Source of the DNA: Thermoanaerobaculia bacterium
Lineage (GTDB): Bacteria > Acidobacteriota > Thermoanaerobaculia > UBA5066 > Gp7-AA6
Assembly (NCBI GenBank): GCA_038319475.1
Contig: JBBQDF010000001.1
Span: 1-37,934, forward strand
DNA length: 37,934 nucleotides
Reading direction: 5' to 3'
This document shows positions 951-37,578 of this stretch, piece by piece; the stretch's first letter is position 1, and every line of letters begins with the position of its first letter. The position numbers and the translations under genes were made by a program. A model generated the notes under the pieces. It saw only the letters and a program-made list of their open reading frames with translations. It was not told where the DNA came from and ran no database searches.

Positions 951-1151
951 TCAGGTCTTCTTCTCCACGATCGTGGGATTGTGCCGGGGGCGGCAGCGTT
1001 TCGTTTTCGGGCTCGGCCGGCGGCGAGGCTTCTTCGCGTCGTCGTCGTCCGGATCGTCGTCGCCCTCGGGGTCGGGCGGGTATTCGGGCGGTGCGTCGTC
1101 CTCATCGTCGCCTGGGAAATGCGGCGCGGCGGAGATCGGGATTTTCTTCAT
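951..1151 (-). CDS. small acidic/Pro-rich protein with a basic tail, function unknown
   Basis: ATG 1151 is preceded by GAGGTGATAG (SD) and lies 3 nt after the stop of the exonuclease gene. G/C predominates at third codon positions. The product has a DDEDD...DDDPDDDD acidic tract followed by a KKPRRRPSPKTKR basic tract. Confidence 0.5.
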   Translation of the reverse strand: MKKIPISAAPHFPGDDEDDAPPEYPPDPEGDDDPDDDDAKKPRRRPSPKTKRCRPRHNPTIVEKKT

Positions 1152-1154
1152 CTA

Positions 1155-2069
1155 TCACCTCTGGTAGAAGCCGGAGTAGTTCATCGTCCCGCCCCACGGC
1201 TCGACGCGCGCGGCAACCTCGGCGAGCAGCGCCGTGTCTGACGCGCACCGCTCTTCGAGGATGTCGAAGTGAGTCGGCGAACCGTTGAACGCGGCCTGCC
1301 GCCAGACTTCTGCGGGGACGTGCATCTTGGTCTGTTCGAGTCCGAGGAAATCCGCCGCGGCCTCGAGCGAGTTTGAGCCGATGCGCATCTTCGACCGGAG
1401 GATTTGCACCGGGTCGCGCAGCTTGCGCTCGACCGGCGGGAGGCCGTACTTCATCGCAATAGAATTGAGCCACGGGACATCGAACCACTTCCCGTTATGA
1501 GCCCACCAGACGTGGCAGTCTTCGAGGACAGAGAAGACGGCGGTCGCGATCTCGGAGTCGTCGGAGCGGTCGCGTTTGTACGTCTCGAACTGATCGAGCC
1601 GGAAGCGGTACTCTTTCGGCTCGCCGTCGCCGAAGACGAGGATGTTCGCGACGAGCAGGACGCCCCAGCCGCGATCGAGCGCGAACGTCTCTAAGTCGAA
1701 GACGGCGATCTGCAAAGGCGAGCGCGCCGTGGTCAGACGCCACGCGTGATCCTTGAAGGGTTTTCGAAGCTCGGCGGGGTTTGTCGCCTTGCCGGAGGCG
1801 ACGCGCGAGGCGCACGCCTTGTGGCTCTTCTGCTCCGGTTCCTTCTGCGTGAACGTGCCGAGGCAGATAGGGCATTGGAGCTTGTCGCCTGCGGCCCACT
1901 TCTTCTCACCGGGGTCCGCCTGAGGCTCGTAGCCGATCCGGTCAGCAACCTGCTCCGGCGATTCTGTGCCGTACCGCTTCCGGCAGGGCCAGCAGCTTTC
2001 CCCGGACGCGCGGCTAGAGGGGCGGAACTGGGAATCGCATCGAACACACGTTTTTCTCGCGTAGGGCAT
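1155..2069 (-). CDS. DEDD-type 3'-5' exonuclease (RNase H-like fold) with N-terminal zinc-ribbon motifs
   Basis: Exo I IAVFDLETFAL, Exo II WWAHNGKWFDVPWL, Exo III ERCASDTALLAEV. N-terminal CxxC pairs are present (CVRC...CWPC, CPIC). Confidence 0.7.
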   Translation of the reverse strand: MPYARKTCVRCDSQFRPSSRASGESCWPCRKRYGTESPEQVADRIGYEPQADPGEKKWAAGDKLQCPICLGTFTQKEPEQKSHKACASRVASGKATNPAELRKPFKDHAWRLTTARSPLQIAVFDLETFALDRGWGVLLVANILVFGDGEPKEYRFRLDQFETYKRDRSDDSEIATAVFSVLEDCHVWWAHNGKWFDVPWLNSIAMKYGLPPVERKLRDPVQILRSKMRIGSNSLEAAADFLGLEQTKMHVPAEVWRQAAFNGSPTHFDILEERCASDTALLAEVAARVEPWGGTMNYSGFYQR

Positions 2070-4004: not shown

Positions 4005-4303
4005 AGGTGTTCCCTCGCTTTCTTCAGGGCGCGCCGGATTGCGGCCTTCTCTTCGCGCGGGAGCTTCCCGATATGGTGCACCTTCCCGGCCGTCTTCAAC
4101 TCGCGCTCCGCGGCGTGGAGATCCGCTTGGAACGCCGCGCACTCCTGGGGGCCCTTGACCTCGACGCAGCCCGCCTCGTAGCGGCCCTCGTGGTACGTGT
4201 ACGCGGCCGCCTGACTCGCGAGGAAATCCTTGTCCGCGATGCAGCCCGTCATGGCGACGAGGAGCAGGAAGAGCCACACGAGCCCGCGTTTGATCCGCCT
4301 CAT
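4001..4303 (-). CDS. lipoprotein (o-spanin-like candidate)
   Basis: MRRIKRGLVWLFLLLVAMTG|C is a signal peptide with a lipobox. ATG 4303 is preceded by GGGGGAG and overlaps the upstream TGA (ATGA). The 455-aa track ORF is an upstream shadow extension. Confidence 0.6.
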   Translation of the reverse strand: MRRIKRGLVWLFLLLVAMTGCIADKDFLASQAAAYTYHEGRYEAGCVEVKGPQECAAFQADLHAAERELKTAGKVHHIGKLPREEKAAIRRALKKAREHL

Positions 4304-4602
4304 CGCTCCCCCGTCTGCTTCTCGATCTCGCGCTGGATGGCGGGTACCACGCTCGACGGCTCCCGGATTGCCAGATTCGTCAGGTCGGGGTTCGCGATCC
4401 GCTTCTCCGCCTCGGACGCTACGAGGATCTTGCTGCTCGCGTGAATGCTCCGATCGAGCCCCCACGCCACGAGCGCCGCGCCGATGTACGCCAGCCCGTC
4501 CGCGATGTTGTGTTCGACGAGCTTCCCGACTCCGAGCAGGAAGAGGCCGGCCGCTCCGATGCGGCCGACCCCCTGCTGGAGTAGAAGCGCGAGTCCAGGC
4601 AG
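4300..4602 (-). CDS. two-TM small membrane protein (holin-like candidate), apparent CTG start
   Basis: Hand translation: LPGLALLLQQGVGRIGAAGLFLLGVGKLVEHNIADGLAYIGAALVAWGLDRS...EKQTGER. G/C predominates at third codon positions from the first codon. There is no ATG/GTG/TTG before the second TM. CTG 4602-4600 directly follows AGGGGGATAG. The first canonical start (GTG) would give a 56-aa product lacking both TMs. Confidence 0.5.
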   Translation of the reverse strand: MPGLALLLQQGVGRIGAAGLFLLGVGKLVEHNIADGLAYIGAALVAWGLDRSIHASSKILVASEAEKRIANPDLTNLAIREPSSVVPAIQREIEKQTGER

Positions 4603-12476: not shown

Positions 12477-12483
12477 CCGCCTC

Positions 12484-13111: not shown

Positions 13112-14773
13112 TCACCCCGTAAAAATCGGCACTTCGACTGCGGTCTTCGCCGTGTTCCCGATCGACCGAGGCTTGGCGGCGAGGTCCGCGCGCCCGCCGA
13201 GCAGGCTGTTCATGAAGGAGGTCTCCCCGCCGTAGAGGTTCGAGAGGCCTGCCGCGCCCGCGTTGCGGTCCTGCCGCGCGAAGTCCTCGAAGCCCATCCG
13301 GCTGCTGCGCACCGCGTTGGAGCCCGCCGCGGCTTCGTGCGCGCCGACATTGGCGAGCGCGGCGTCCGTCCCGCCTGTGCCGCCCGTCGCCGCCGCGTGC
13401 CGCTTGATCTGCTCCCCCGCGCCTTGGAACCCTGCACGCGCCGAGTTCACCGAGTCCTGGATGATCGCGCTCTTCGTCGGATCGGAGAGGCCGGGATTCG
13501 TCTTCATGTTCATGTAGGTGTCGTACGCGTTGCCGCCCGCGAGCTGCCGGTTGCCGGACGCGCCACCCTGTCCCCACATCTGCCCGCCCTCGGAAATCGC
13601 GCGGCCCTGCGCGTCGTAGCCGAGCGTGGGCCCCTGGAACGCGCCGGAGAAGAACGGGCTCGCTTCCGGGATCGGGTCGCCCGGCTGGCCGCCCGGAGGG
13701 GTCGTGTCGCGCGGAGGCAGCGCGATCGGCGGCGGCACGTTGCCGGTCGGCGGGATCACTGGAGCCCGCGGCGGTACGGCCGGTGGTGCCGTCGTCGTCG
13801 AGCTCGGCGACTTGCCCGGCGACTGGCCCGGCGGCTGGCTCACGTTGCCGGTCGGCGGGATCACTGGAGCCCGCGGCGGCGTGGCCACCGTCGAAGTCTG
13901 CGCGGCCTTCGCCGCGAGTGCTGCGCGCCCCCGTTCCGCTTGTGCCGCGAGCGCCGCGTCGGTGTCCATGAATTGCCCGAACTGTGAGGCGTCGTACGGT
14001 TTTCCGGTGATCCCGTAGCCGCTTTTCATCCCCATCGCGGCCTGCGGGTTGTAGGTCATCGACTTGTCGTTTTCGATGCCCTTGAGCCATTCGTTCGTCG
14101 CGGTGTTGTTCGGATCGTCAGGGCCGGATTCGTTGGGGAACGGATCGGTTCCGACGCTCAAGTGCTCCGCGCCCTTGTAAATGCGACCGTTCGGCCCGAC
14201 CGGGTAGTTCTTGTATCCGGCCGGATCGACGCCGAGCTCACGCATCTTGTCGCGCGCCTCCTGACTGATGCCCGAGAGATCCATCCCGTTGACCATGCCG
14301 CCGTCGCTCATGTCGTACGCGCCAGCGCCGGGGCCGCCGTTGTAGGCGTCTGCTGGCGCATAGGATCGGTCGAGAGCATATCTGCCGCCGGTGCCGCCGG
14401 AACCTCCTCGATCGCCACCACCGCTACCACCGCCGGAGGAACTCCCGAAAGAAGGACCTTCGTTCGCGCCGCGGACGATCGGCCCGTTGTTGCGGCGCGT
14501 ATGATCGCCGTCCGAGCCGTCCTGATCGTCGGCCGGCGGCGGCGTTCCACGCGGCGGATGCAACGTCGGGTCCGCCTCAGCGTCCGGTCGCGTGTACGGC
14601 CCGGCCATCGCCCGGTTGCCGTACATCTCGCTCGCAAACGCGTTGGCGGTCGGACCCATGTCCGTCCCGTAGTCGTAATTCAGGTTTCCCGACGTGCTCT
14701 GATCGCGCGTCTTCGAGCCGATGTCGAAGCTACACGCGACCGCGAGGGCCTGCGTTCTGAGGTTCAACCACAT
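13112..14773 (-). CDS. Gly/Pro-rich low-complexity virion-internal-like protein (553 aa)
   Basis: ATG 14773 (TGATG junction with the GNAT stop). The track start at 14776 is a TTG one codon upstream. Contains PPRAPVIPPTGNV twice. Confidence 0.65.
   Translation of the reverse strand: MWLNLRTQALAVACSFDIGSKTRDQSTSGNLNYDYGTDMGPTANAFASEMYGNRAMAGPYTRPDAEADPTLHPPRGTPPPADDQDGSDGDHTRRNNGPIVRGANEGPSFGSSSGGGSGGGDRGGSGGTGGRYALDRSYAPADAYNGGPGAGAYDMSDGGMVNGMDLSGISQEARDKMRELGVDPAGYKNYPVGPNGRIYKGAEHLSVGTDPFPNESGPDDPNNTATNEWLKGIENDKSMTYNPQAAMGMKSGYGITGKPYDASQFGQFMDTDAALAAQAERGRAALAAKAAQTSTVATPPRAPVIPPTGNVSQPPGQSPGKSPSSTTTAPPAVPPRAPVIPPTGNVPPPIALPPRDTTPPGGQPGDPIPEASPFFSGAFQGPTLGYDAQGRAISEGGQMWGQGGASGNRQLAGGNAYDTYMNMKTNPGLSDPTKSAIIQDSVNSARAGFQGAGEQIKRHAAATGGTGGTDAALANVGAHEAAAGSNAVRSSRMGFEDFARQDRNAGAAGLSNLYGGETSFMNSLLGGRADLAAKPRSIGNTAKTAVEVPIFTG
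13736..13879. repeat. exact 39-bp direct repeat inside the gene (13736-13774 and 13841-13879)
   Basis: CACGTTGCCGGTCGGCGGGATCACTGGAGCCCGCGGCGG occurs twice with 105-bp phasing. Confidence 0.85.
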
Positions 14774-15183
14774 CAAAGCTCCTTCTGGAATCGGTGGACG
14801 AGATCGAACGTCAGATGCATCCGCGGATCGCTCTTGAACCCGTAGCGGGAGAGCACGAGGCCCTTGTTCATCGTTTCGAGGTTCGGCTCCAGAGGCACGA
14901 TCAGGCTGTCGCAGCCCTCTTCGTAGACGGCCCGCGCGAACGTCGGCCAGACGCTCTTCAGCACGTGCAGCCGGCGAAGATCCGTCCCCGCGGAGGGGTC
15001 GAGCATCAGCACCACTTCCGCCGTCTTCCGGGCGAGGATGCAGGCGATCACGTGGCCCTTCTCTTCGACGACGAAGGCGGTCTTGTGAAGGCGATAGGAC
15101 GGATCAGTGAAGCGGACGCCAGCGCGCGCGGCTACCTGTTCGAGGGCCTCGCGATCGCGCTCGTCATACTTGCGGATGTTCAG
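14773..15183 (-). CDS. GNAT-family N-acetyltransferase-like protein (136 aa), apparent CTG start
   Basis: LNIRKYDERDREALEQVAARAG...VVEEKGHVIACIL...MNKGLVLSRYGFK follows the GNAT layout. The track ORF (GTG 15051, 92 aa) would remove the N-terminal third. The 44 upstream codons are open, with G/C predominating at third positions, and contain no ATG/GTG/TTG. CTG 15183 overlaps the upstream TGA (CTGA) after GGTGATAG. Confidence 0.55.
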   Translation of the reverse strand: MNIRKYDERDREALEQVAARAGVRFTDPSYRLHKTAFVVEEKGHVIACILARKTAEVVLMLDPSAGTDLRRLHVLKSVWPTFARAVYEEGCDSLIVPLEPNLETMNKGLVLSRYGFKSDPRMHLTFDLVHRFQKEL

Positions 15184-15500
15184 CTATCACCGCGACAATT
15201 ATAAGCCGCCGACTCCCGCCCGATGAGCCCGGAGCGCGGCCCGCACCACGGGGTCGCTGCACCGCCGAGCGGTTCGGAGTATCCCCACCCGAGCACCGAG
15301 AACAGCCGCGCGCCCGGAGATCCCATCGCGTAGTGCTTCTCGCACAGCCACGCCTCGTTTGTCGCGGCGACGCCCGGCCGAGGACATTGCTCGCAGAGCT
15401 TCGCCGCCTGGGAACACTCGATGCAGAAGGCTCCGCCCTCCGGCCTCGGGACGAGCCCGCTGCGTTGACAGTCGGCCGTCTTACACGCGCGCGCCCGCAC
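15180..15500 (-). CDS. Cys-rich small protein
   Basis: ORF-track ORF with a GTG start overlapping the cupin gene end. CxxC-type pairs are present (CKTADC, CIEC, CEQC). Confidence 0.45.
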   Translation of the reverse strand: MRARACKTADCQRSGLVPRPEGGAFCIECSQAAKLCEQCPRPGVAATNEAWLCEKHYAMGSPGARLFSVLGWGYSEPLGGAATPWCGPRSGLIGRESAAYNCRGDS

Positions 15501-20856: not shown

Positions 20857-21519
20857 TTAACGGTGTGCCGAACTGAACGGAATGCGCCGTCCCGCCTTGT
20901 ATTGAGCCCTGTTCACGTGTCTCCGCAGGAACCGATTCGCCTGCTTCTCGTACTGGCCCGACAGCCGATCGCCGAGAGAATTCGAGCCGCGCGAATACGC
21001 GCAAGCCGCCGCCGTGAAAGTCGCCAGCACGTTCAACGCGCCGCCGATTAAGATCGGATCGGTCCCGGTCGTGAAGATCGCCAGCCTGGACTCGTACTCG
21101 AGCCGGATGTCCGTCGCGACCGTCGCCGCCTGAATGTTGATCCGGTTCTGATACCAGCCCCACGTCCCGCGCGTGCTCATGGGCGTTACGTCGGACAGCG
21201 GGACTTCTTCGGCCTCGTCCATTTCGACGAACTGGTCCGTCGTGCCCGTCGCCCGCTCCTCGAGCCCGTACGGCAGGATGAAGTCAGCCGGCAGCGCGGG
21301 CGTCGAGGAGCCGTCCAAGAAGAGAACGCTCGCGCCGACGTTGGACAGCACGACGCTCGAACGGTTCACCCCGGCCTGGTTTGTCGAGAGCCGCTCCTGA
21401 AGCTCCAGATACGCCTCGTTGGCAAGCGGCAGCATGGCCGTCGCGTCCCACACCGCGCCCTCGCGGTCCCCGACCTTCGCTTTCGCTAGCGCGACGAGAT
21501 CCGAATAGAGGTCGGCCAG
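20857..21519 (-). CDS. adaptor/tail-tubular-A-like structural protein (220 aa), apparent CTG start
   Basis: The track ORF starts at GTG 21453 (VWDAT...). The same frame is open upstream to TAG CGG CTG and encodes LADLYSDLVALAKAKVGDREGAVWDATAMLPLANEAYLEL, an N-terminal pattern I associate with phage adaptor/tail proteins. It contains no ATG/GTG/TTG. Confidence 0.5.
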   Translation of the reverse strand: MADLYSDLVALAKAKVGDREGAVWDATAMLPLANEAYLELQERLSTNQAGVNRSSVVLSNVGASVLFLDGSSTPALPADFILPYGLEERATGTTDQFVEMDEAEEVPLSDVTPMSTRGTWGWYQNRINIQAATVATDIRLEYESRLAIFTTGTDPILIGGALNVLATFTAAACAYSRGSNSLGDRLSGQYEKQANRFLRRHVNRAQYKAGRRIPFSSAHR

Positions 21520-21522
21520 CCG

Positions 21523-22251
21523 CTAGCCTTTGGCCTTTCCGGGCTGCGCGAGCGGCTGGATGAATCCGCGATCGAGCCCGCGCGTCTCCTCCGCGTCGTC
21601 CAACGCGCCCATGTCGTACGCCTTCTGCCAGTCGAGGACGTACCGACACTGCGCACACCGCACCGCGGCCGGATCGTTCTTCGCTTGACACGCTCCGCAG
21701 ACCTTCACCGTCGAGATCACCCCGGCCCACTCCTTCGTGATCCCGAAGTAGTCCGCGAACCATCGCGCGTGATCGCCCACGTCCCGAGGATTCTTCCCGC
21801 GAGCCCACCGCTTGTCCGCCTCGAGGATCTCGGTGCGGCCGTACTCCTCGAATCGCTCCCGACACGCCGCGAGATCCTCCGCGGCCGGCCCCTCGTCCGC
21901 ATCATCCCCTACGTAAAAGACGCCGCGGTCCTGCCCCATCGAGGAGAGTAGATCCATCGCCCGCTGCTTCGCCGACACGATCACCGGCTCCGCCTGCCCG
22001 TTGCCGAAATCCTTGAACGCGTTGTAGCCCTTGATCGGCACGAGGATAAACGGCTCATAGGTTCCGTCCTTGCGACGCGGACACGCCGGGATCTCCATGT
22101 TGCCGCCCTGGTCGTGCCGGCGGTACGGACTCCACGGCGAGATCGAGCAGAGATACGCCGTCTCGCCTTCGAGCCGCTCCGCCTGCTCGTCCGAAAGCGT
22201 CCCCACCATCCGGTTACGCGTGTCGATTCCACCCATCGGCTGAAAAGCCAT
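21523..22251 (-). CDS. hypothetical protein with a C-terminal zinc-ribbon (CGAC...CAQC)
   Basis: ORF-track ORF with a TAATG junction to the upstream gene. Confidence 0.55.
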   Translation of the reverse strand: MAFQPMGGIDTRNRMVGTLSDEQAERLEGETAYLCSISPWSPYRRHDQGGNMEIPACPRRKDGTYEPFILVPIKGYNAFKDFGNGQAEPVIVSAKQRAMDLLSSMGQDRGVFYVGDDADEGPAAEDLAACRERFEEYGRTEILEADKRWARGKNPRDVGDHARWFADYFGITKEWAGVISTVKVCGACQAKNDPAAVRCAQCRYVLDWQKAYDMGALDDAEETRGLDRGFIQPLAQPGKAKG

Positions 22252-22952
22252 TACCCGAACCCCTTTCCGTCGGAAGCCGGGATCCCCGGCACCTGACTCA
22301 CAAACCGCTGGCCGTGGAACGGCAGAACGCTGTCGTTCACCATGTCGTCGGCCATCGCGTCAAACTTCTTCTCCTTGCGCGCCTCGACCGCCTCGAGCCC
22401 CGCCTTCTTTTCCGAGTGCGTCCGGTTGCGCGACCAGTCCACGAGCCGGACGAGCTGATCCACCGCGACCGGCACCAGCGGGAAGAACTGCCGCTTGTCG
22501 TCCTCCATGCACCGGACCTGCTCGTACTCGCCGCGCGCCGGATACGGCCCGAGCGACTCGAACCGAGTGAACCCCTCGTAGACTTCCGTCGTGCGCTCCC
22601 ACGCCTCCGGGCTCATGTCGGGCTCGCGCCACTGCTCCAGATGCCACCGCTCGAATTTCGGCCAGTACTTCGGCTCCATCCTGTATCCGAGGAAGCCGTC
22701 CGAGAACCGGCCCCCGATCCACGTCAGCCGCTTCCAGCCCCACACGACGCGAAACCGAGGCTCCCCGTACGGATTCATCCCGCCCAGGACCGCTAAGCTG
22801 CGCTCCAGGGCCGGATCAAGGTACGGACCCTCGTAGTCGCGGCCGGGATAAGCCACGCCCGGCAGACGCTTATCTGACTGCGCTTCGATGAAACGCGCGG
22901 TGCGCGCGCCGATTAGCTTCGGCGAGCGAAAGCCCGGCCGCGGCGTCGGCAT
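22251..22952 (-). CDS. hypothetical protein (233 aa)
   Basis: Start taken at ATG 22952 (MPTPRPGF...). The longer track version overlaps the opposite-strand HNH gene. Confidence 0.55.
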   Translation of the reverse strand: MPTPRPGFRSPKLIGARTARFIEAQSDKRLPGVAYPGRDYEGPYLDPALERSLAVLGGMNPYGEPRFRVVWGWKRLTWIGGRFSDGFLGYRMEPKYWPKFERWHLEQWREPDMSPEAWERTTEVYEGFTRFESLGPYPARGEYEQVRCMEDDKRQFFPLVPVAVDQLVRLVDWSRNRTHSEKKAGLEAVEARKEKKFDAMADDMVNDSVLPFHGQRFVSQVPGIPASDGKGFG

Positions 22953-22998
22953 CGCGTGACTTCGAAAAAGTTTAGACAGCCTTAAACTCCAAGCTTCC

Positions 22999-23265
22999 CT
23001 GAGAGTCCGAGCGAAAAGAGCGGGCGCAGCCGGCTCCCACACCGTCGCGGAGTGGAAAGCCGTACTGCGCCACTACAAACGTCGCTGCGTCTACTGCGCC
23101 GTGAAGTTGACCAACCGCACGGTCAGTCGAGACCACAAGGTGCCGCTCGCCAAAGGCGGGACCAACAGCATCCGGAACATCGTCCCGGCCTGTCGCTCCT
23201 GCAATTCCGCGAAGCACGTCATGTCTCACGACGAATTCCTAAAGTACAGAAAACACGGTCATTAA
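22999..23265 (+). CDS. HNH endonuclease (free-standing), apparent CTG start
   Basis: Hand translation: ...HTVAEWKAVLRHYKRRCVYCAVKLTNRTVSRDHKVPLAKGGTNSIRNIVPACRSCNSAKHVMSHDEFLKYRKHGH*. This carries CxxC...DH...N...CxxCN, the HNH signature. It is missing from the track because the only canonical start (GTG) lies after the first CxxC. CTG 22999 is the only common near-cognate start upstream. Confidence 0.65.
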   Translation: MRVRAKRAGAAGSHTVAEWKAVLRHYKRRCVYCAVKLTNRTVSRDHKVPLAKGGTNSIRNIVPACRSCNSAKHVMSHDEFLKYRKHGH

Positions 23266-24533
23266 TAGCCGGTCGGGCGTGCAAGCCCTGAAATATAGGA
23301 TCCGCGCCGCGGGTTGTCCTGGAAAATCTGGAAGCTCGAGATGAGATACCAGATGAACCCCGCCGCGAGTCCCCCGGAGGCCGCGTAGATCGGGAACACG
23401 GTATCGTTGCCGATCTGGAAGTAGTCCACTTCCTGCGAGACGGCGCGCCCCCACGAGGAGAGCGAGAGGAAGTCGATACGAGTCGGATCCGCGTGGATCG
23501 AGGACTTGATCGGGACGCCCGCCATCGTCTTCACCTTGAAGAACGGCTCGAGCGCCTGATTCGGGTCGGAGCCCTTGATGATTTCCGAGAGCACGAAGCC
23601 GATGTCTTCGTAGGCGTGCTCCTGGGCGAGGTGCATGTACGCGACGAGATCGTCGGGCACGCCGTCGTTGCCGAGCACGAGGCGAATCTTGTTCAGCGCG
23701 AGTCGGACGTGAGTCGTCGTCAGCGCCGCGCTCCCCGCAACCACTTCGGGCGTCCGGATCTCGGGGTACGTGGCCCGATTGAGGTTGAGCCACGTGCCGC
23801 TGTTGGCCGAGCTCTGATGGTAGGGAATCCCGAAGAGAGACTGAGCCGTTCCGGAACCCGCGATGATGCCCTGGATGGTGATCACGTCGCCGGTCGCGGT
23901 GCTTGTCGCGATGACCGAGACCGTGACGGTGAGGGCCGCCGGGTCGATCGCCGTGACGATCATGGTGCCCGCCGCGTCCGATCCGCCCCCGGTGCGCTTG
24001 GTGGTCAGCGCCGCGGAAGTGAACGCGTAGATGTACTGACCCGAGTAGAACAGGGACGTGCCGAAACTGCCGGAAACCGTGATGACCACGCCGGCCACCG
24101 AGGCGACGGTCGCGAGGATGCCTCCGCCAGAGGTCTGACAGAGGACATCGAGTGCGGTGCGCATCTGCTTCATCGCAGATTTCGTCTCGCGCTGGACGAT
24201 TTTCTCGATGCCCTTCTCCGACGTGTTGGTCGAGATGTCCGTCTTCTTGGTGAGTTCCACGGCAAACTTGAAGTCCACCGGAGTCAGCGTGGCGACTTCG
24301 TAGAAGCTCGCCCCGCCGCGACCCATGTCGCCGCCGTCGAGAGACACCTGCCCGAACGATCCGCCGGGCCGAATCGCGAGTGGAATACGCATCGCTCGCG
24401 AGGAGACGGTTTCCTCGTCGGCCTTTTTCTCCAGCATGGAATAAAACGTGTCGTCGCGCTCGTAGAGGAGCGGGAGCTTGTCCCGGACCTTCTCGAGCTG
24501 CGTCGCCACGGTGTCTGCGTTGATCTGTGCCAT
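23262..24533 (-). CDS. major capsid protein (HK97-fold type)
   Basis: 423 aa, located directly after a scaffold-like gene, with GAGGATAG-ATG initiation. The composition and length are typical of tailed-phage MCPs. The call rests on context and overall resemblance, not on a searchable motif. Confidence 0.7.
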   Translation of the reverse strand: MAQINADTVATQLEKVRDKLPLLYERDDTFYSMLEKKADEETVSSRAMRIPLAIRPGGSFGQVSLDGGDMGRGGASFYEVATLTPVDFKFAVELTKKTDISTNTSEKGIEKIVQRETKSAMKQMRTALDVLCQTSGGGILATVASVAGVVITVSGSFGTSLFYSGQYIYAFTSAALTTKRTGGGSDAAGTMIVTAIDPAALTVTVSVIATSTATGDVITIQGIIAGSGTAQSLFGIPYHQSSANSGTWLNLNRATYPEIRTPEVVAGSAALTTTHVRLALNKIRLVLGNDGVPDDLVAYMHLAQEHAYEDIGFVLSEIIKGSDPNQALEPFFKVKTMAGVPIKSSIHADPTRIDFLSLSSWGRAVSQEVDYFQIGNDTVFPIYAASGGLAAGFIWYLISSFQIFQDNPRRGSYISGLARPTGY

Positions 24534-24550
24534 CTATCCTCTGGCCCGCG

Positions 24551-26117: not shown

Positions 26118-27953
26118 TTAGTTCGGCACTCCGAGCCCACTCGTCGGAATGACGATGAAGGCTGTGAACTCCGGCGCGGTCGTAACGACCGTCGTTTCGC
26201 TCCATCCGTTGGGCTGCGCGCCCGTGTGGGTCGCGGCTGACGTGTCGAAGGTGAACGAGACGCCCGTCGAGAACGTCCCCGACTGGATCGCTCCGAGCCC
26301 CCAATTCAACCCGTCATAGACGTCGAACGTCTGGCCGGAGAGCATGCCGCAGGAGTCGATATTGATCGCCTTCGTGCTCGTCGGCGTGTTCGGCCGATAG
26401 ACGTAGATGTTGCAGCGGCCCTTCTCGTAACGGTTCGGGCGAATGAAAGGGGCGGGGCTCGCCGCCGCTCTCCACTGCGCGTTAGTCTGGTAGAGGTTGC
26501 CGCTGACGCCGGAGGCCGGGCAGGTCGTGCAGTTGACGATCGGCGTCGAGGCGATGATGGTGTTGCCCGTGAAAATCTCCCCGGTGATCGTCTGTGAGAG
26601 AAGTCCGCCGCCAAAGCCGCCCGTGCTCTGGTTCGCATCGGAAACGTGATACTCGTTTTGGATTCTCGGCAAGTACGCGCCCGCGTCATATCCGACGTTG
26701 ACCGTCGAGGTCGCGCCCTTTCCAGTCGTCATAGCGTTGTAGGTGAAATTGTTCCGCAACGTGCCTCCCTGCGAGGGATGCCCGACGTTGCCCGTCCCGA
26801 CGAGAAAGTTGTAGGAGCGGGTCAGGTAGCGGGCCAGCAAGCCAGGGTTTACGGAGAGGTTTCCCTCCGCCGTTTCCCAATCGACGTTTCCGCTGGAGCT
26901 GTAGACGTGGAGGTCGTTGTTCCAGTTGTCGTGCATGATGTTGTCAAAAAAGCGCCGATTGCCAACGATGTTCTGCGAGTAGACGGCAACGCCGCGATTG
27001 TTCGACTGCGCGATCGTCGTGTGCGCCGTCGCGGTGCAGCCGCCGGAGAAGTTGACGATGGGTGGCTTGGAGACTTGAGTCGCGTAGCCGTCCCAATAAA
27101 GCGAGCCACAGGTGCCCGGATACGCGCCGCAGTCCATGCCGTTGGCCTGATAGCCGGAGGAGGTCGCGGCCGTAAACCCGGTGACCGCGCCGCCCGACGT
27201 TGTCGCGGTCGGAGCCACTGCGCCGGTGCCGGTCGTATCGCCCGAAGCGGCCGTAAAGGAAACCACCGTGCTCGTGCAACCGGCTCCGCCCGTGTCGAGA
27301 AGAACGCCGCTCACATAGGCCGGCGTGCCGTCGTTGCCCATGTGGAAGAACTGGCTCCCGTAGATTTCCCAGCCCGTGCCCGAGTCGGCCCCGAAGATCG
27401 AGAGGCCGCTCGTCAGGTTGTCAACAACGCAGTTGATGATGCGGTTATTGATGTACGGCCCGCCGCCGGAATGGGAGTAGAGGCCGCCGGAGCGCGTCAA
27501 GCCGTTCGAGTAAGACGACGGCAGGGGAACACCCTCGCGGCGCGTCTCGGTGCTCGAGGACGTGAAGCGCAGGCCCCAAAGCCAGACGTTCGAGGCGAAG
27601 AATTCGACCGCGACGCGGCCGTCCGTGATCGTCGAGGCGGCGAAGTCGATCACCGGGAACTCGCCAGGATAGGCGCGGTAGACGACCGGGGCCTGAGCCG
27701 TTCCCGACTTCGAGAACTGAAGCATCGGGTTATTGCCGAGCCCCGCGGCGGGTAGCGAGTACGTCCCGCCACGCAACCAGTAGGTGTCTCCGGCGGCCGA
27801 AGGGCCACAGGTGCCGTTCTTGGCCGTCGCGATACCACACGGGGACGCCTTGGAGCCCGTCGTGCCAGAGCCCGAGGTCGACACGAACCAAGTCGCCGCA
27901 TCGGCCTGCCCGGCCGCGAGAAGAAGCGTGAGAGCGAAGAGGGCTTTCTTCAT
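26118..27953 (-). CDS. secreted right-handed beta-helix (pectate-lyase-fold) protein, putative polysaccharide depolymerase
   Basis: MKKALFALTLLLAAGQADA|ATWFVSTSGSGTTG...GDTYWLRGGTY has the N-terminal pattern of DUF1565/beta-helix proteins. Repeated NxxI/V...G turns are present. The junction with the upstream gene is GTGATG. Confidence 0.7.
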   Translation of the reverse strand: MKKALFALTLLLAAGQADAATWFVSTSGSGTTGSKASPCGIATAKNGTCGPSAAGDTYWLRGGTYSLPAAGLGNNPMLQFSKSGTAQAPVVYRAYPGEFPVIDFAASTITDGRVAVEFFASNVWLWGLRFTSSSTETRREGVPLPSSYSNGLTRSGGLYSHSGGGPYINNRIINCVVDNLTSGLSIFGADSGTGWEIYGSQFFHMGNDGTPAYVSGVLLDTGGAGCTSTVVSFTAASGDTTGTGAVAPTATTSGGAVTGFTAATSSGYQANGMDCGAYPGTCGSLYWDGYATQVSKPPIVNFSGGCTATAHTTIAQSNNRGVAVYSQNIVGNRRFFDNIMHDNWNNDLHVYSSSGNVDWETAEGNLSVNPGLLARYLTRSYNFLVGTGNVGHPSQGGTLRNNFTYNAMTTGKGATSTVNVGYDAGAYLPRIQNEYHVSDANQSTGGFGGGLLSQTITGEIFTGNTIIASTPIVNCTTCPASGVSGNLYQTNAQWRAAASPAPFIRPNRYEKGRCNIYVYRPNTPTSTKAINIDSCGMLSGQTFDVYDGLNWGLGAIQSGTFSTGVSFTFDTSAATHTGAQPNGWSETTVVTTAPEFTAFIVIPTSGLGVPN

Positions 27954-29062
27954 CACGAGGTCGGCGCGACGAAGGTGTCGAAAAAGACGGAGATCCGGAC
28001 GACGCCGGTCGCCGCGCCGGGCGTCGCGTTGGGGGTGATCCGAATCTTGACCGCCGAGGTCTGCACGGGGCCAGCCGCCGACGTATTCGTCGGGTCCATG
28101 TGGAGCAGGCCGACCGCCGTGGTGTTCGCGGCAACCGCTACGCCCGTAGCAAACCGCGCGGGAGTTGTCGCATCGCCGACCGTGAACGTCGCGGCGGTCG
28201 GGATGGCGGTCGTGACGCGGACGACGACGGCACGAATGATGGAGTTGGCCGGGAGCAAGTTGCCGACCGTGTCGGTAGATGTCGCGGCGGCGATTGTCAA
28301 GAGCTCGTTGATCTCGCCGCGCTGCCAGTATTGGCCGTTGCCGGTGCCGCCCGGGCCGACGTAGATATTCTTGACCGAGTTGGCCGTGGAGCCGAGGTCC
28401 TTCGATCCGTTGGGAACCATAGACGAAGCACCCATAGAGAAGATGGACGCGCCTCCGATCTGGAACCGAATGTTGTTGTCGGAGCCGAGGTTGAGCCCGT
28501 TCTCCGTCCCGGTGCCGCCCTTCGTCGAGAGAATCTGAACTTGGTTTGACCCCTGCGCGAAGTTCACCGCGAGCTTGTGGTAGTTGACCGGAGTCGTGTC
28601 CGAGTCCGTCGTCTCGTAAATTTCGAACGCCTGGTTATTCGTCAAGGCGATCTCGCGAATCGTGTTCGCGCCCGAGGGGCGCAGGTTGGCGAGGTCGAAG
28701 GTGAGCGTTCCGGCGGCGAAGCGCGGGAGACCTGTGACTCCGGAAACGTCCTGACCGAACGCGCCCTGCGTCAGCGGGAAGGTGCCCGAAGTCACGTCGC
28801 CTGCCGCGTGGGTGTGGACGCCGATCTGGGCCGCCGCAATCGTCGTGATGCCCTGAATGGTCGTGGCGTTGGTCCACTGCGCGATCTGGTTGGCGACGGG
28901 GGTCCCGCTGATTGCCACCGCGCCGCCACCACCGCCGCCGGGGGTGTCGATGCGTTTCGCCGCAGAAGAGGCGATGATCGCGGCCGATTGCTGTTGAGCA
29001 AGGCCGCTCGAGGAAACAAGAAGGGCGGTCAGAGCCGCCAGGATCAGCGCGGTTTTTTTCAG
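27953..29062 (-). CDS. signal-peptide, tail-fibre-like protein (369 aa), apparent CTG start
   Basis: The track ORF starts at GTG 28918. Forty-eight open upstream codons encode LKKTALILAALTALLVSSSGLAQQ..., a Sec signal peptide, with no ATG/GTG/TTG. CTG 29062 overlaps the TGA of a mini-ORF (ATGAGCTGA). The HTHAAGDVTSGTFPL motif resembles phage fibre proteins. Confidence 0.6.
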   Translation of the reverse strand: MKKTALILAALTALLVSSSGLAQQQSAAIIASSAAKRIDTPGGGGGGAVAISGTPVANQIAQWTNATTIQGITTIAAAQIGVHTHAAGDVTSGTFPLTQGAFGQDVSGVTGLPRFAAGTLTFDLANLRPSGANTIREIALTNNQAFEIYETTDSDTTPVNYHKLAVNFAQGSNQVQILSTKGGTGTENGLNLGSDNNIRFQIGGASIFSMGASSMVPNGSKDLGSTANSVKNIYVGPGGTGNGQYWQRGEINELLTIAAATSTDTVGNLLPANSIIRAVVVRVTTAIPTAATFTVGDATTPARFATGVAVAANTTAVGLLHMDPTNTSAAGPVQTSAVKIRITPNATPGAATGVVRISVFFDTFVAPTS

Positions 29063-29096
29063 CTCATATACCCGCCTTTCTCAGGGTCGCCCCCGA

Positions 29097-29740: not shown

Positions 29741-32068
29741 CTACTGCACCGGAGGTGCGGTTTGATCGTCGCCCGGAGCGCCACCGGGCGTCTCGGGCGG
29801 AACGGCCGTAGCCTGCTGAGCCTGCAAGATCGTCGCGCACTCATCCAGTCGCATCCGCAGCGCCATCCACACGTCGGGCCGCGTCTGCCGCGTCTCCTGC
29901 CCCGCGTCCGACGCCGCCCACTCGCGGATCGTCGCCGCGATCACCTGCGCGTCGTCCATCATCGGATCGACTGGAGGCATCCCGGCCGGCCCTTCCTGAA
30001 TCGCGCGCGAGATCACCCGAAGCTCCGACTCCCGCTCCGACGCGCCGGGAATCTCGATCTCGTCGGCCATCCCGGAGTACTTGAAAAACGTCTCCGCGTT
30101 GGACGGCCGCGCGAAAAGCGCAGCGAATGCGGGGTTGGCCGACGCGGCCTCGACCGCCTGCCGCCGCTTCTCGAACGTCACCGGATACGCCTCCGTCACG
30201 TCCGGGTAGGCGCGAATGTTGCCCTTCAATTCGTCCAAGCGGATGAGCTTGGAATCGAGAGTCCCGGCCGGGCCCATCACGGCGATCTTCACGTCCGCGG
30301 GCCGGTTCTCCTTGAAGCACTCGACCGCCATCCCGTCGATGTCCGCGAGGAATCCAACCATCGTGCGCCACAGCAGCCCGATCCGGCCGAGCCCCTGATC
30401 CCGCTGATCCGCGATCCCCGCGGCCGTGTCGTTGCCGCCCGTGTCGCCGCCGAAGATCGCCGGAAACGCCCCGACGAGAAACTGCCCGATCTCCGACCGC
30501 AGCTCTCGCAAATATTCCGGAATGAACTGGGAGAGCGTCGCCGGCTGCGTCTGGAAGAAGTCGCCCGGCAGGCTCCCACCCTCCGACGGCATCGCCCCGA
30601 ACACGAGCCCAGGGATCGACCCTGCCTCGCGGAATGCGGCGATGTCCAGCGTGTCCGAATTGACGAACAGCGCCGGGATCCCGTACTCCGCCGTCTCGTA
30701 GAGGATATTCGAGAGCGCGTTGTACTGCTTCTGCACCGGGATCAGCGACGAGCCGACGGCCTCGCGGTTCTGGCCCTCGCCAGGGAAGGCGTGAACCACC
30801 TTCCACCGCTTGTCCATTTCGTCCTCTTCCGCCTCGCAGTACGTGTCGCCGCAGAACGTGACCTTGACGCCCTTCGGGAATCGCCGCAGCAGTTCCGCAC
30901 GGATCGTCTCGTCCTTCACCGCATAGAACGCCCACGGCCGGAACCACGTGCGCCGCAGCGGCAGAAGCACCTGCCCGAGCTTCCCGCCCGCTCGAGCCGG
31001 GCCCGTGCCGGATTCCAAAAGCGCGATGTTCGTGCTCTTCTCGTACGCCTGCGCCGAGGCCGCCTCGCCCCCGCCGCTGCCCGAGTCGCCCGACTTGTCA
31101 ATCCGCTTCTCGATCCACGGATAGGTCGCGATAACCCGCGCCTTGTGGAAGTAGCCCGAGTAGGTCAGAAACGGGTACTGATCCTGCTCCTGCGCGTAGG
31201 TCGGCAGCACGAGGTTCAGAAACGAGACGAGCTCCAACATTTCCTGTCCACGTGGCGTGCGGTCGATCATCTGCTGCCCGGTCGTGGGATCCATCGCGGG
31301 AGCCGTGAACGTGACCGGCTCGCCCTCGCGCATCGTGGATGGGTCCAGCGGCGTCCCACACTCCGGGCACGTCGGCTGCGTCTGGCCCGGATCGGGCGCA
31401 GGCACGGGACCGCTCACCCCACAGTCGGTGCACGTCGCGACCGGATCGCCGGGCTTCGTCTGGAGCTCCGTCCGGGGCGTCTCGTCCACCCCGTACTTCT
31501 GCTCGTCCGCGACGTAGCGCACAAAGCCCGCGCAGCCGCCGTCGTTGAACAGATAAAACATGATGTCCTGAAGGAGCTTGGGAATCGGGTTGTTGCGCCG
31601 GAAGAGTTGCGCCACGTCCGTCGCCGCCTTCGAGGTCGCCACGTCCGAATGGTTCTCAGGATCCGCCGGCATCCACTTCGTGCGCGGATTGCCCTCCGTC
31701 AAAACCGAGATCAGCGTGAGCCCGAACGCCTGATAGAGGTTCGTCACGTGCTGATACCGCGGCATCATGTCGAGTTCTTTGTCGGTGAGCTTGTCCTGGC
31801 CGGGGATCTTGAACTGCCCTGTACGCTCGTCGAAAAAGTAGTAGTGGAGCCCCTTCCACATTTCGCGGGCCTCGCGGATCTTCCTCAGATCGTCGCGGCG
31901 CGCGACGGAGACCTCAGCCTCGAAGTCGTAGACGAGTTTCCGCAGCGCCGTAACGCCTTCGGCCCACTCCTTCTCGAGATCGGGATTTTTCCCCGGCGAT
32001 GGCGTCCCCGGCGAGGTGCCCGCAAGATCGACGGGCTCGGGAGGTTGAGGCTGATAGGCGCTGGACAG
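29741..32068 (-). CDS. portal protein (putative), apparent CTG start adding 69 N-terminal residues
   Basis: The large ORF lies downstream of the terminase, and size and position fit a portal. The track start is ATG 31861, but the frame stays open for 69 more codons (LSSAYQPQPPEPV...EKEWAEGVTALRKLVYDFEAEVSVARRDDLRKIREARE), with G/C predominating at third positions, up to AGGGGGATAG-CTG at 32068. Confidence 0.6.
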   Translation of the reverse strand: MSSAYQPQPPEPVDLAGTSPGTPSPGKNPDLEKEWAEGVTALRKLVYDFEAEVSVARRDDLRKIREAREMWKGLHYYFFDERTGQFKIPGQDKLTDKELDMMPRYQHVTNLYQAFGLTLISVLTEGNPRTKWMPADPENHSDVATSKAATDVAQLFRRNNPIPKLLQDIMFYLFNDGGCAGFVRYVADEQKYGVDETPRTELQTKPGDPVATCTDCGVSGPVPAPDPGQTQPTCPECGTPLDPSTMREGEPVTFTAPAMDPTTGQQMIDRTPRGQEMLELVSFLNLVLPTYAQEQDQYPFLTYSGYFHKARVIATYPWIEKRIDKSGDSGSGGGEAASAQAYEKSTNIALLESGTGPARAGGKLGQVLLPLRRTWFRPWAFYAVKDETIRAELLRRFPKGVKVTFCGDTYCEAEEDEMDKRWKVVHAFPGEGQNREAVGSSLIPVQKQYNALSNILYETAEYGIPALFVNSDTLDIAAFREAGSIPGLVFGAMPSEGGSLPGDFFQTQPATLSQFIPEYLRELRSEIGQFLVGAFPAIFGGDTGGNDTAAGIADQRDQGLGRIGLLWRTMVGFLADIDGMAVECFKENRPADVKIAVMGPAGTLDSKLIRLDELKGNIRAYPDVTEAYPVTFEKRRQAVEAASANPAFAALFARPSNAETFFKYSGMADEIEIPGASERESELRVISRAIQEGPAGMPPVDPMMDDAQVIAATIREWAASDAGQETRQTRPDVWMALRMRLDECATILQAQQATAVPPETPGGAPGDDQTAPPVQ

Positions 32069-32078
32069 CTATCCCCCT
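32066..32078 (-). promoter_or_regulatory. translation-initiation motif AGGGGGATAG-CTG (copy 2)
   Basis: Identical 13-mer to 4600-4612. Here the TAG is the stop of the 32069..32473 gene. Confidence 0.5.
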
Positions 32079-32473
32079 GCCGAAGGACGCGCCGCCGCGG
32101 CGGGATCCGTCATTCCGGGCACCGGATCGCTCCAGTCGCCACCGGCCGCCGTCTCCGCGTCCGATTTCGCCTGGAGGCGCTGCACGAGCTCGTCGCCGCG
32201 GATCGGCCGGAACCCGCGAGGCTTCGACGCGCCCGTCGGAAACGCGATGTTGTGGCCGGATGGCGATTTCTGCGAGAGGTACATCCCCTCCCACTTGTCC
32301 GCACGGGCCCGCTCCGCGTTGACGAGCGAAACCCACCGCGTGCGCTCGAAGGCGACATCCTTCTCGAGCTTCGTCACGAGCGCCGCGAGCGTCTCGAACG
32401 CGAGCCGCGACACCCACGGCCAGAAAATCCGCTTCGGTCGCGCGACGACGGGAGCCGGAGTCGGCTCGCTCAT
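32069..32473 (-). CDS. hypothetical protein (134 aa)
   Basis: ORF-track ORF with an ATGA overlap at 32473/32470. Confidence 0.55.
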   Translation of the reverse strand: MSEPTPAPVVARPKRIFWPWVSRLAFETLAALVTKLEKDVAFERTRWVSLVNAERARADKWEGMYLSQKSPSGHNIAFPTGASKPRGFRPIRGDELVQRLQAKSDAETAAGGDWSDPVPGMTDPAAAARPSAGG

Positions 32474-35967: not shown

Positions 35968-36238
35968 TCTGACGATCGCCGTCGGGCCCGCGAGGTGTCC
36001 AAGCTCCCGCCCGGCCACGAGAGCGTCCGCAGCCCATCGCAGCCGGGTGAGTGGTCAGCCCGCGAAAGGGGCCGACGGAGGGGTGTCTCATCCGGTCCGA
36101 CCAGTCTGAGGCGAGGAGTTTCCGCCGTCAAGACCTTTTAGGGGCGAACGAATTGCGCGCTAGGCTACAACGGGATCGACGGTTGCGGCCAGTGCTCCGA
36201 TGAGGCTCGGGCTTCGTGTGGAAACGAAGTACCCAAAA

Positions 36239-36278
36239 GCGGATCAGAATCGAACCGACGGCCGCCGCTCACATCCGC
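36239..36278 (-). other. T-arm-like hairpin followed by a T4 run (degenerate tRNA fragment or weak terminator after the MTase gene)
   Basis: Minus strand: GCGGAU-...GUCGG-UUCGAUU-CUGAU/AUCCGC-UUUU. It has a GGUUCGAUU T-loop consensus and a 6-bp outer stem. Confidence 0.25.
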
Positions 36279-36330
36279 CTCGATAGGAGCTAGGCACGGT
36301 TCGCCCGCCGCGGCTCCGACCTGATCCGTC

Positions 36331-37578
36331 CTACCGCACCGCGGTTACGTCGAACTCGAACAGGTGCTTGTTGGAGTTCCGTTTGCGAAGTGTCTCGATT
36401 CGAACGTTACGGAACCCTAACTTCTCAAGCATCTCAGCGTAAATGTTCTCGACGGGGACGACCACGCCGTAGAATGTGACGTTCCCGACGATGTAGTGAA
36501 CCACGCCTCCTGGCCTGATGACTCCCTTCACAGATTGAATGTGCGTCCAGATATCCTCGAAGTATTTGGCCACGTAAGTCGCCAAGAGGTCTCGGTTCTC
36601 GCCGTTCGTCTCTCGGATCGCTGCAAGGGAAGAACCGAGGATTCGGGGAACGAAGCTCTTGCCACTTGGTCGCCAGCCGATCAGTCGGCTTGTTGCGACG
36701 CCCCAAGTACCGCCGATGGCCGTCCAGTCGAGTTCAGCGGCTGCGCGGGCCTCATTGAGGAAGCCCAGCCAGTACATGTAGGGCCGAAGCTCTCGGATGT
36801 AGGACATCCGGTTTGGGTAAGGAGGTGAGGTAATGAGCAGGTCATATTTTCGAGAGACTAGGCCCTCAAGCTCACGAGAGTCTCCTTCGATGACCTCAGC
36901 GGCTCCGACTGGATTCGTTGCAGCACCAGCGAGGACGGTGGCAACGTCTTTTGAGAACTGATTTGGGATGTCGTGGTCGACGCCGAACATTGGTTGCTGT
37001 GCTGACCTTCCATCTTTGAACGACATCGACTGATGATTGAACGCGGCGTTCGAACTTGTGATGATGGTTCGGCAGAACGCAATCCGCAGCAGATCGCCTA
37101 CGGGCGTTCTGAGTCGAGTTGTTGCTTCGAGCGACGTCCTCAGTCGGCAAAGCTGAGTCAGAGTGTCCGAGGGCCACCAACGCTGGATGTTGGCCAAGGG
37201 TGGTGGGGCGCCCGGCTCTTCTTTCTCGTCACTGCAGCGCTGAACGATCTCCCGAGCGAGCGCCGCAGCGCCAGAGAGGACCTCATCGCAATACTGAGCT
37301 AGCTTTGCACGACCGAACCAGACGAGGAACGGATTGATCTCGATAGATGTCGCGGCACGGCCGAGATTGGCGGCGCACAAAGTTGTCGTCCCAGTTCCTG
37401 AGAAAGGATCCAAGACGACAAGCCCCGAAGCGCCGGAGTTCAGGATCTCCTGAACGATTTTTACTGAATACGCCGGGGTAAGCCGCAGCCAGCCGTGTCG
37501 CCCCGCGGATCGGTTGTACTTGAAGGTCAACTCTGCCCGCTGCCCGACCCGTTCCCGTTCGTCCTGAGTGAGGCTCAC
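36331..37578 (-). CDS. DNA methyltransferase (N4-cytosine or N6-adenine; SPPY motif IV, FxGxG motif I N-terminal)
   Basis: VLDPFSGTGTT (AdoMet motif I), then ~190 aa, then LLITSPPYPN (catalytic motif IV). No cognate nuclease gene is nearby. The gene is visibly less GC-rich than the rest of the window. The GTG start overlaps the TAG of a leader mini-ORF. Confidence 0.8.
   Translation of the reverse strand: MSLTQDERERVGQRAELTFKYNRSAGRHGWLRLTPAYSVKIVQEILNSGASGLVVLDPFSGTGTTTLCAANLGRAATSIEINPFLVWFGRAKLAQYCDEVLSGAAALAREIVQRCSDEKEEPGAPPPLANIQRWWPSDTLTQLCRLRTSLEATTRLRTPVGDLLRIAFCRTIITSSNAAFNHQSMSFKDGRSAQQPMFGVDHDIPNQFSKDVATVLAGAATNPVGAAEVIEGDSRELEGLVSRKYDLLITSPPYPNRMSYIRELRPYMYWLGFLNEARAAAELDWTAIGGTWGVATSRLIGWRPSGKSFVPRILGSSLAAIRETNGENRDLLATYVAKYFEDIWTHIQSVKGVIRPGGVVHYIVGNVTFYGVVVPVENIYAEMLEKLGFRNVRIETLRKRNSNKHLFEFDVTAVR

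Follow-up and report, generated by a model that had tools for sequence, protein, structure and literature searches.

At which codon does the portal-like gene of this uncultured phage begin? The gene lies in a 37,934-nucleotide (nt) stretch of DNA, hereafter the window, from a Thermoanaerobaculia bacterium (assembly GCA_038319475.1, contig JBBQDF010000001.1, positions 1 to 37,934); like all genes discussed here, it is on the minus strand. On record the gene starts from an ATG at 31861, and the initial annotation of the window proposed instead that it opens with a CTG placed directly after the stop of the preceding gene. Having followed this up by sequence comparison, we consider that the gene is very probably translated from the CTG at 32068, giving a protein of 775 residues and not the annotated 706, and that it would be one of five or six CTG-started genes in the window.

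The reading frame upstream of the annotated ATG

The upstream open reading frame (ORF) of 134 amino acids (aa), 32473..32069, terminates with the TAG at 32071-32069, and the next triplet, 32068-32066, is the CTG, which lies within cAGGGGGATAGCTG. As had been claimed, the 69 codons from 32068 to 31862 that begin with this CTG include no stop and no ATG, GTG or TTG, and an ATG comes at 31861. A base-composition estimate suggests that, at 65% G+C, ~17% of random 69-codon stretches would be stop-free and ~7% would be without ATG, GTG or TTG; an open, start-less stretch is thus unremarkable and the case must rest on other evidence. Likewise, the TAG shares the frame of the portal-like ORF only by virtue of standing immediately next to its start. 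The predominance of G and C at third codon positions was borne out (GC3, the G+C fraction at those positions, is 0.77 over the 69 codons), and a log-odds score for codon usage, with the window's long genes as training set, gave +0.21 per codon in frame against -0.42 and -0.49 in the other two frames. Two contextual statements of the initial annotation had to be corrected: the operon is not otherwise gap-free, as gaps of 238, 282, 297 and 498 nt are present, and a recount gives ~36 minus-strand genes in place of about 47.

Homologues provide the more direct evidence. With the extended 775-aa protein as query, a search of 5.8 billion proteins matched the gene's own annotated product (P0001, 706 aa, from the ATG), a close relative at 65% identity (P0002, 718 aa) and 19 distant relatives at 32-37% identity. 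The only close relative is Logan contig SRR29078161_24505 (L001), whose portal-like protein is 65% identical; no other turned up in the 5.8-billion-protein search. In our alignment (A1), 16 of 18 homologues reach N-terminally into the upstream codons of the window, their alignments beginning no later than query residue 42, for example with EGVTALRKLVYDFEAEVSVARRDDLRKIREARE against LVNALRELVxxYRxEGxVARRHEIRRIRQARL. Scans of the IMG/VR and GTDB genomes added 160 further loci, all 160 of them matching the query from residue 42 or earlier, so that ~180 homologues altogether align well upstream of the annotated Met70. This is the opposite of what would be seen if homologues started at the ATG-equivalent position behind an unrelated upstream region. 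Four residues upstream of Met70 stand out in A1, I64 and R68 by being invariant and R57 and R62 by being almost so. The Met70 column itself holds Phe in the close relative (P0002/L001) and Leu or Phe in the other homologues. As Met70 is unconserved, the annotated ATG is a substituted hydrophobic residue and not a conserved start. A canonical start is available upstream of the conserved block in 159 of the 160 loci. The exception, L142, belongs to a metagenome-assembled genome (MAG), and in its 9900-10020 region an ATG at 9902 lies in another frame with an AAAA run soon after; most simply, its lack of a canonical start reflects a one-base assembly indel in the A-run. The relatives found in GTDB (L082-L161, 32-38% identity) are mostly on long contigs of Acidobacteriota/Terriglobia/Acidoferrales MAGs and are probably a large uncharacterised group of prophages, with no match to any INPHARED phage.

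An AlphaFold2 model built on A1 is poor overall (pLDDT, the predicted local distance difference test, 50; pTM, the predicted template modelling score, 0.24). It places a helix at residues 36-71, running through Met70, and has its best local confidence, pLDDT 74-81, at residues 31-50. On these comparisons we regard the 69-codon stretch 32068..31862 as coding.

It is the comparison with L001 that bears most closely on the position of the start itself. The portal-like frame of L001 opens after a TGA at 9797-9799 and continues for 67 codons without ATG, GTG or TTG; the start chosen there by the gene caller is a TTG at 10001, at a different position from the window's Met70. The L001 CTG, 9818-9820, overlaps the TGA of the upstream gene in a different frame (GGC TGA read as G CTG A). 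Using tblastn, the window protein aligned from residue 1 to exactly this CTG, LSSAYQPQPPEP against LSSAYPPQSQPPD (LSSAY...), and the first Ser codon after the CTG differs between the genomes (TCC and AGT). The extensions of the two proteins share 43 of 68 residues, 20 of these encoded by different codons, and the nucleotide differences at codon positions 1, 2 and 3 number 18, 17 and 31. These 20 synonymous codon changes and the third-position excess point to purifying selection on the extension, which is 63% identical to L001 as compared with 65% for the whole portal-like protein. In two genomes from different sequencing runs the CTG is the first conserved codon, either adjoining or overlapping the upstream stop. 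Apart from the CTG, the stretch from codon 1 to the family-wide conserved block has a single near-cognate of AUG, the ACG of codon 22, which is without a ribosome-binding site.

A start motif shared with ATG genes, and further probable CTG-started genes

To place the CTG among the starts of this genome, the 28 nt upstream of every gene start were tabulated. The CTG was found to occupy the exact ATG position of a shared motif, consisting of a purine-rich GGNGGA or GGTGA, then TAG, then the start codon. Thus GAGGATAG stands before the ATG at 24533 and GGTGATAG before the ATG at 1151, with GGGGGATAG before the CTGs at 32068 and 4602 and GGTGATAG before the CTG at 15183; reduced to GATAG, the motif stands before CTG at three sites (32068, 15183 and 4602) and before ATG at two (24533 and 1151). 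The sequence GGGGGATAG was found only at the portal-like site and at 4611-4603, each time directly before CTG. On the coding strand only, GATAGCTG was observed three times against an expectation of 0.34, a count reached in 0 of 100 shuffles, and each copy begins a long ORF whose codon usage is of coding type and which has no canonical start. GATAG has seven copies on the coding strand, six of them at ribosome-binding sites. With CTG making up 1.9% of codons, the probability that three or more of five start-less extensions would open with it is 7e-5.

The distance from the Shine-Dalgarno (SD) sequence to the CTG is 3-4 nt in the GGTGATAG and GGGGGATAG motifs, and the SD-like motif at the CTG sites has the spacing of canonical starts in the same genome. 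The TAG before the start of the major head protein gene (24533) is the stop of no upstream gene; the in-frame TAG before the start is part of the ribosome-binding motif. GGTGAT and GGAGG are complementary to the 3' end of 16S rRNA (...GAUCACCUCC...), and on that complementarity the motifs would be start-proximal SD sequences. The ATA within GATAGCTG was also considered as a start and rejected, being out of frame with the conserved protein and hitting a stop on reading by eye. Coordinates are collected in Table 1.

Table 1. Positions in the window of the portal-like gene, the other candidate CTG-started genes and the sites compared with them
Feature	Position	Strand	Remarks
Portal-like gene	29741..32068	-	775 codons counted from the CTG; portal label from position only
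Predicted CTG initiation codon of the portal-like gene	32066..32068	-	Directly after TAG 32071-32069; aligned to L001 CTG 9818-9820, where protein homology begins
N-terminal part of the portal-like protein omitted from the annotation, 69 codons	31862..32068	-	Homologue alignment, L001 substitution pattern, codon usage
Upstream 134-aa gene	32069..32473	-	Separate protein, unfused to portal-like; L001 orthologue 9375-9821, 48% identity, TGA in different frame
SD-like GGGGGA with TAG spacer	32069..32077	-	TAG doubles as stop of the 134-aa gene
Comparison site, GATAG then ATG, major head protein gene	24531..24538	-	Spacer and position as at CTG sites
Comparison site, GGTGATAG then ATG, 66-aa gene	1149..1156	-	Motif as at CTG 15183
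220-aa gene	20857..21519	-	CTG 21519, three nt after upstream TAG
369-aa secreted-type protein	27953..29062	-	CTG 29062; signal-peptide-like N-terminus
242-aa gene	22251..22979	-	CTG 22979-22977 (probable)
136-aa gene	14773..15183	-	CTG 15183; motif and codon usage
100-aa small hydrophobic protein	4300..4602	-	CTG 4602, 8 nt after TAG of upstream gene; motif and codon usage
Initiator-tRNA-like mini-cloverleaf, CAU anticodon	35896..35967	-	L001 copy 3686-3757, ~85% conserved

The initial annotation went further and proposed systematic use of CTG in this genome, a view supported at 21519, 29062 and 22979 by comparison with L001 and at 15183 and 4602 by the ribosome-binding motif shared with ATG genes. 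Of the six sites it listed, those at 4602, 15183, 21519 and 29062 were right, together with 32068; the one at 22999 was not, as there is no CTG there and the relevant codon is at 22979-22977. In all five extensions coding-type codon usage is restricted to the correct frame. The total would be five or six among ~36 minus-strand genes (~14-17%), and 2 of 34 in the examined part of L001, where the CTG is kept for the portal-like gene and for 21519, is replaced by TTG at 22979 and has a GTG start within three residues as its approximate counterpart at 29062. CTG starts at the small terminase gene, at the 33187 gene and at 29729, 17970, 11421, 2069, 13107 and 34016 were rejected, canonical starts being found once the frames were sorted.

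At 21519 the sequence reads TAG CGG CTG GCC GAC, and the same 15 nt occur in L001 (17397-17411). Homology to L001 begins at the CTG, LADLYSDLV... against LADTYNTLV..., and the window's first GTG in this gene (21453) is ATC in L001, whose first canonical codon lies elsewhere. Among distant homologues 57 of 63 align from residue 8, and their own genes start at an ATG seven codons upstream of the CTG-equivalent; in the window eight codons are available before conserved residue 8, with CTG the only NTG among them. At 29062, CTG AAA AAA ACC GCG CTG ATC... encodes (M/L)KKTALILAALTALLVSSSGLAQ, a signal peptide by eye, and the first canonical start is 48 codons downstream of the CTG. Since a signal peptide must be N-terminal, this supports a start at the CTG. 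The positional analogue in L001 has a GTG start, VKRRLTGLGYLIAIALACPVAGLLAQ, offset by three residues. At 22979 the order GGAG-7nt-CTG TCT AAA CTT TTT aligns to GGAGG-5nt-TTG AGC AGA CTG TTT in L001, the TTG being the called start there, and the alternative upstream GTG at 23042 sits in a terminator-like hairpin. We grade the CTG at 22979 only as a probable start because of a conserved ATG nine codons downstream.

The two remaining genes are those at 15183 and 4602. The codon log-odds is +0.38 in frame for the 15183 gene, and its sequence is identical in an independent Logan assembly (L162). For its protein the database search returned only itself, tblastn found no homologue, and Pfam and PDB sequence searches were empty; a single-sequence AlphaFold2 model was poor, and the GNAT acetyltransferase matches given by Foldseek were not significant. 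For the 4602 gene the codon log-odds in frame is +0.50 and no homologues were found, tblastn included; its first GTG (4470) falls within the second of two hydrophobic stretches, as read by eye.

Proposed mechanism and rival explanations

We envisage that the 30S subunit would be positioned by start-proximal SD pairing, and that the host's ordinary fMet-tRNA would read CUG with a first-position mismatch, the protein beginning with Met. Initiation at CUG would be much weaker than at AUG and would set a low protein output. Such output would be expected to suit few-copy proteins. Besides the portal-like protein, those concerned here are a small membrane protein, a secreted protein, a candidate acetyltransferase and what may be a neck or adaptor protein. 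The three sites lying 0-8 nt after an upstream stop may also gain from translational coupling, which would not be required because the other three CTG sites follow gaps of 34-297 nt.

Several considerations weigh against this account. There is a single close relative, so that conservation of the portal-like CTG rests on two genomes. The ATG at 22952, nine codons after the CTG at 22979, is conserved in both genomes and could be the real start of that gene, and the 15183 and 4602 genes have no homologues and rest on motif and codon usage. It also should be considered that the low-copy rationale is our own inference, most of these proteins having no assigned function. Finally, CUG initiates at ~1-2% of AUG in E. 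coli (bioRxiv 10.1101/063800), and this level might not suffice for a structural protein if the host is no more tolerant of CUG than E. coli.

Other explanations of the same sequence were weighed against initiation at CTG. Read-through or recoding of the TAG at 32071-32069 would give a fusion of the 134-aa and portal-like proteins, with no separate start needed. TAG followed by C is a relatively weak terminator in E. coli contexts, the TAG is in frame with the portal-like ORF, and the upstream TAG is also in frame at 21519 in both genomes; however, such an in-frame relation is automatic when a stop adjoins a start, as it does at the TAG-ATG junctions at 20420 and 12816. TAG also serves as a normal stop, 14 of 35 genes ending with it, and no suppressor tRNA was found in the window. 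Read-through could not produce a fusion in L001, where the TGA that stops the upstream orthologue belongs to a different frame and the portal-like frame has a TGA of its own six codons ahead of the CTG. At 15183 two consecutive in-frame stops, TGA TAG, stand directly before the CTG and a TAA is found four codons above them, and the upstream gene of 4602 is in another frame. We therefore hold read-through to be extremely improbable. A frameshift fusion with the upstream gene in L001 was likewise rejected, as no slippery heptamer was seen by inspection (GCTGGCTGA) and it would be inconsistent with the arrangement in the window. An artefact would be another way out, with the CTG a sequencing or assembly error for ATG, or else decay, with the start lost, the ATG at 31861 now in use and the upstream stretch a remnant. 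Both contigs are indeed metagenome assemblies and the distant relative L142 has a probable indel at the start of its portal-like gene, but two genomes, obtained in different runs and with 35% of residues differing, both have the CTG, which dismisses sequencing error; the 15183 site recurs unchanged in an independent Logan assembly, and the GATAG-ATG sites of the same assembly are intact. A decaying remnant is dismissed by the constraint on the extension, which is the same as on the rest of the protein (63% and 65% identity, with synonymous changes in excess), and fits poorly with the unconserved Met70 and with a first canonical codon in L001 that is a TTG at a different position. Artefact or decay is accordingly very unlikely. 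Termination-reinitiation alone, in which ribosomes finishing an upstream ORF or mini-ORF restart at the nearest NTG with relaxed stringency, is unlikely as the whole explanation and may be a contributing factor; it bears on mechanism and not on CTG as the start. The CTG follows an upstream stop by 0, 3 and 8 nt at 32068, 21519 and 4602, and overlaps it (CTGA) in L001. A mini-ORF, ATG AGC TGA, overlaps the CTG at 29062 (CTGA; window 29060-29067) and is followed by a seven-A run, and another, TTG TCG CGG TGA (15187-15198), ends 3 nt before the CTG at 15183. Such mini-ORFs could be chance, though, and none ends at 22979; the CTG at 29062 follows a 34-nt gap and adjoins a stop only by way of the two-codon mini-ORF. 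The sites at 22979 and 15183 come after gaps of 282 and 297 nt that hold, respectively, a terminator-like hairpin and a TATAAT box (~15205-15200, upstream of the CTG). Moreover, every site has its own SD-like motif with spacing as in uncoupled ATG genes, for example the capsid gene after a 17-nt gap.

A different possibility, which we judge distinctly unlikely, is that a special factor licenses CUG, namely a phage initiator-tRNA-like RNA (35967-35896) with an altered anticodon stem, or an unusually CUG-tolerant host. ARAGORN reports a tRNA-Met at 35969-35896, and in both phages the element lies between a conserved TTGAC box and the small terminase gene, which it directly precedes. It is ~85% conserved in two CTG-using phages, where the block of packaging and structural genes begins, and is absent from the 160 distant loci, relatives with canonical portal-like starts. 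Both copies fold as a cloverleaf and share features of an initiator: position 1 is unpaired, C1 lying opposite C72 in the window and A72 in L001 (a 1:72 mismatch), the acceptor stem (G2-G7) has G2-C71 and C3-G70, the CAU anticodon is conserved, A73-CCA is encoded, and the T stem shows a compensatory G-C to A-T change between the copies. Read outward from the loop, the anticodon stem is C-G, G-C, G-C and then an A-C mismatch, which departs from the G29-31/C39-41 triple of initiators. The C-G in place of G-C beside the loop recalls the M1 variant of E. coli tRNAfMet, in which swapping G30-C40 cuts discrimination against CUG in vitro (PMC11497404) and which makes a functional link between element and CTG starts conceivable. 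That variant is engineered in an otherwise normal tRNA, whereas the phage element is a reduced, non-canonical cloverleaf with a different pair (31-39) altered, and the link is speculative, as the initial annotation had already said. Against a working tRNA stand the Rfam tRNA models, none of which matched at gathering score (the best was tRNA-Sec, 19.7 bits, E 0.39), a 4-bp D stem abutting the acceptor stem with nucleotides 8-9 missing and a D loop of 4 nt, a pyrimidine (C) and not a purine at position 37, the anticodon-stem mismatch, an L001 T loop of UGCAAUG and fold z-scores of only -1.4 and -2.0. The anticodon is CAU and not CAG, the co-occurrence of element and CTG starts is a single evolutionary event, and pattern searches of IMG/VR and JGI metagenomes gave no further copies, with a marginal match only among INPHARED phages. 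In its most specific form the idea would be that these phages encode a miniaturised initiator tRNA of their own, that it is transcribed as the first part of the late operon and that it evades the discrimination of the ribosome and IF3 against CUG, all of which strikes us as quite improbable; if true, CUG-started genes would be efficiently translated only once the RNA is made, a phage-encoded switch of start-codon specificity. As a separate observation on the adjoining gene, the window's small terminase start is the GTG at 35876, 20 nt after the element, and in L001 the called start of the small terminase, GTG 3734, falls within the element. The in-frame TTG at 3770, beyond the element, is more plausible there.

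Neighbouring features and the wider setting of CTG initiation

The portal label of the gene rests on gene order only. The large terminase gene (35545-34022, phrog_2), the portal-like gene (32068-29741) and the major head protein gene (24533-23262, phrog_14242) follow one another in the window, with the same order in L001. No portal-family match was found in Pfam or PHROGs for the portal-like protein or for 19 family members, a PDB profile search with the family gave zinc fingers only, and Foldseek on the AlphaFold2 model returned nothing at E <= 0.001. The protein does carry an invariant CxxC...CxxC zinc-ribbon (C213, C216, C234 and C237; residues 213-237 of 775), the halves of which are parted in distant relatives by a variable low-complexity insert of up to ~100 residues.

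Some other features of the window were noted in passing. At 36235-36317 ARAGORN reports an 83-nt tRNA-Arg(cct) where Rfam finds no tRNA; by eye there is a GGATCAG...CTGATCC hairpin and then a T-run, directly after the methylase gene, and the feature may be a terminator rather than a tRNA. The methylase gene is a 415-aa ORF at 36331-37578, adjoining the tRNA-like elements, with a DNA methylase match (N6_N4_Mtase, 8.7e-09) over residues 46-84 only. In the region 5905-12599, a listed 2070-aa ORF starting from GTG 12117 overlaps the 398-aa gene at 12599-11403 by ~700 nt. A codon-usage frame plot indicates that the frame of the long ORF is coding only from near 11400, and the gene in fact begins with ATG 11421, preceded by GGGAGCGG, and encodes 1838 aa, with no frameshift needed. 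Downstream of the major head protein gene, at 23023-23043, a terminator-like hairpin reads GGTGTGGGAGCCGGCTGCGCC then CGCTCTTTTC, and L001 has a similar hairpin and T-run at the same place. It contains a GTG taken by ORF finders as the start of the next gene, and may attenuate transcription after the capsid gene.

How does the proposed CTG initiation in this phage compare with known cases? Annotated CTG starts in model bacteria amount to 20 of ~85,000 genes, or 0.024% (PMC11983097). The best documented is the RepFIB rep gene (P307, F, pO157), where CTG was proven by N-terminal analysis and mutagenesis and where a good ribosome-binding site goes with expression that is held low; annotations routinely place its start at a GTG 14 codons downstream (PMC11983097), an error of the kind seen in the window. 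RepFIB rep is a single plasmid regulatory gene, whereas the phage would have five or six such genes, structural ones included, as read from sequence alone. E. coli K-12 has two verified chromosomal CTG starts, hda and yfjD (PMC3531124). These SD-directed CUGs were found through conservation and inspection of the ribosome-binding site, much as here, and were confirmed in E. coli by mutagenesis (PMC3531124); the difference is one of number, two confirmed genes per K-12 genome against ~14-17% of genes in the window. In S. aureus, the AUA of infC, the AUU of cvfC1 and the start of ccpN are weak starts offset or positioned by a strong, close SD (PMC13009471). All non-canonical starts there have extended start-proximal SD motifs and give ~10-30% of AUG translation (PMC13009471). 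Those are third-position variants (AUA, AUU) in host regulatory genes, in contrast to a first-position CUG in phage genes. Both CTG initiation and the annotation failure are therefore of a known type, and what is unusual is the density in one phage lineage, the motif shared with ATG genes and the involvement of a core virion gene.

As standard gene callers consider only ATG, GTG and TTG, these proteins are truncated in NCBI and Logan. This consequence had been foreseen in the initial annotation and is seen on record, where the two portal-like proteins stand at 706 aa (P0001) and 718 aa (P0002) and the product of the 15183 gene at 92 aa (P0022). Truncated models of this kind spread through protein databases, where they reduce the power of searches by homology or structure and conceal signal peptides and transmembrane segments. 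A phage lineage with CTG at ~1 gene in 7, including a core virion-assembly gene, would offer a natural system for the study of weak-start stoichiometry and of what makes CUG usable, be it the start-proximal SD motif, translational coupling, host tolerance or a phage factor.

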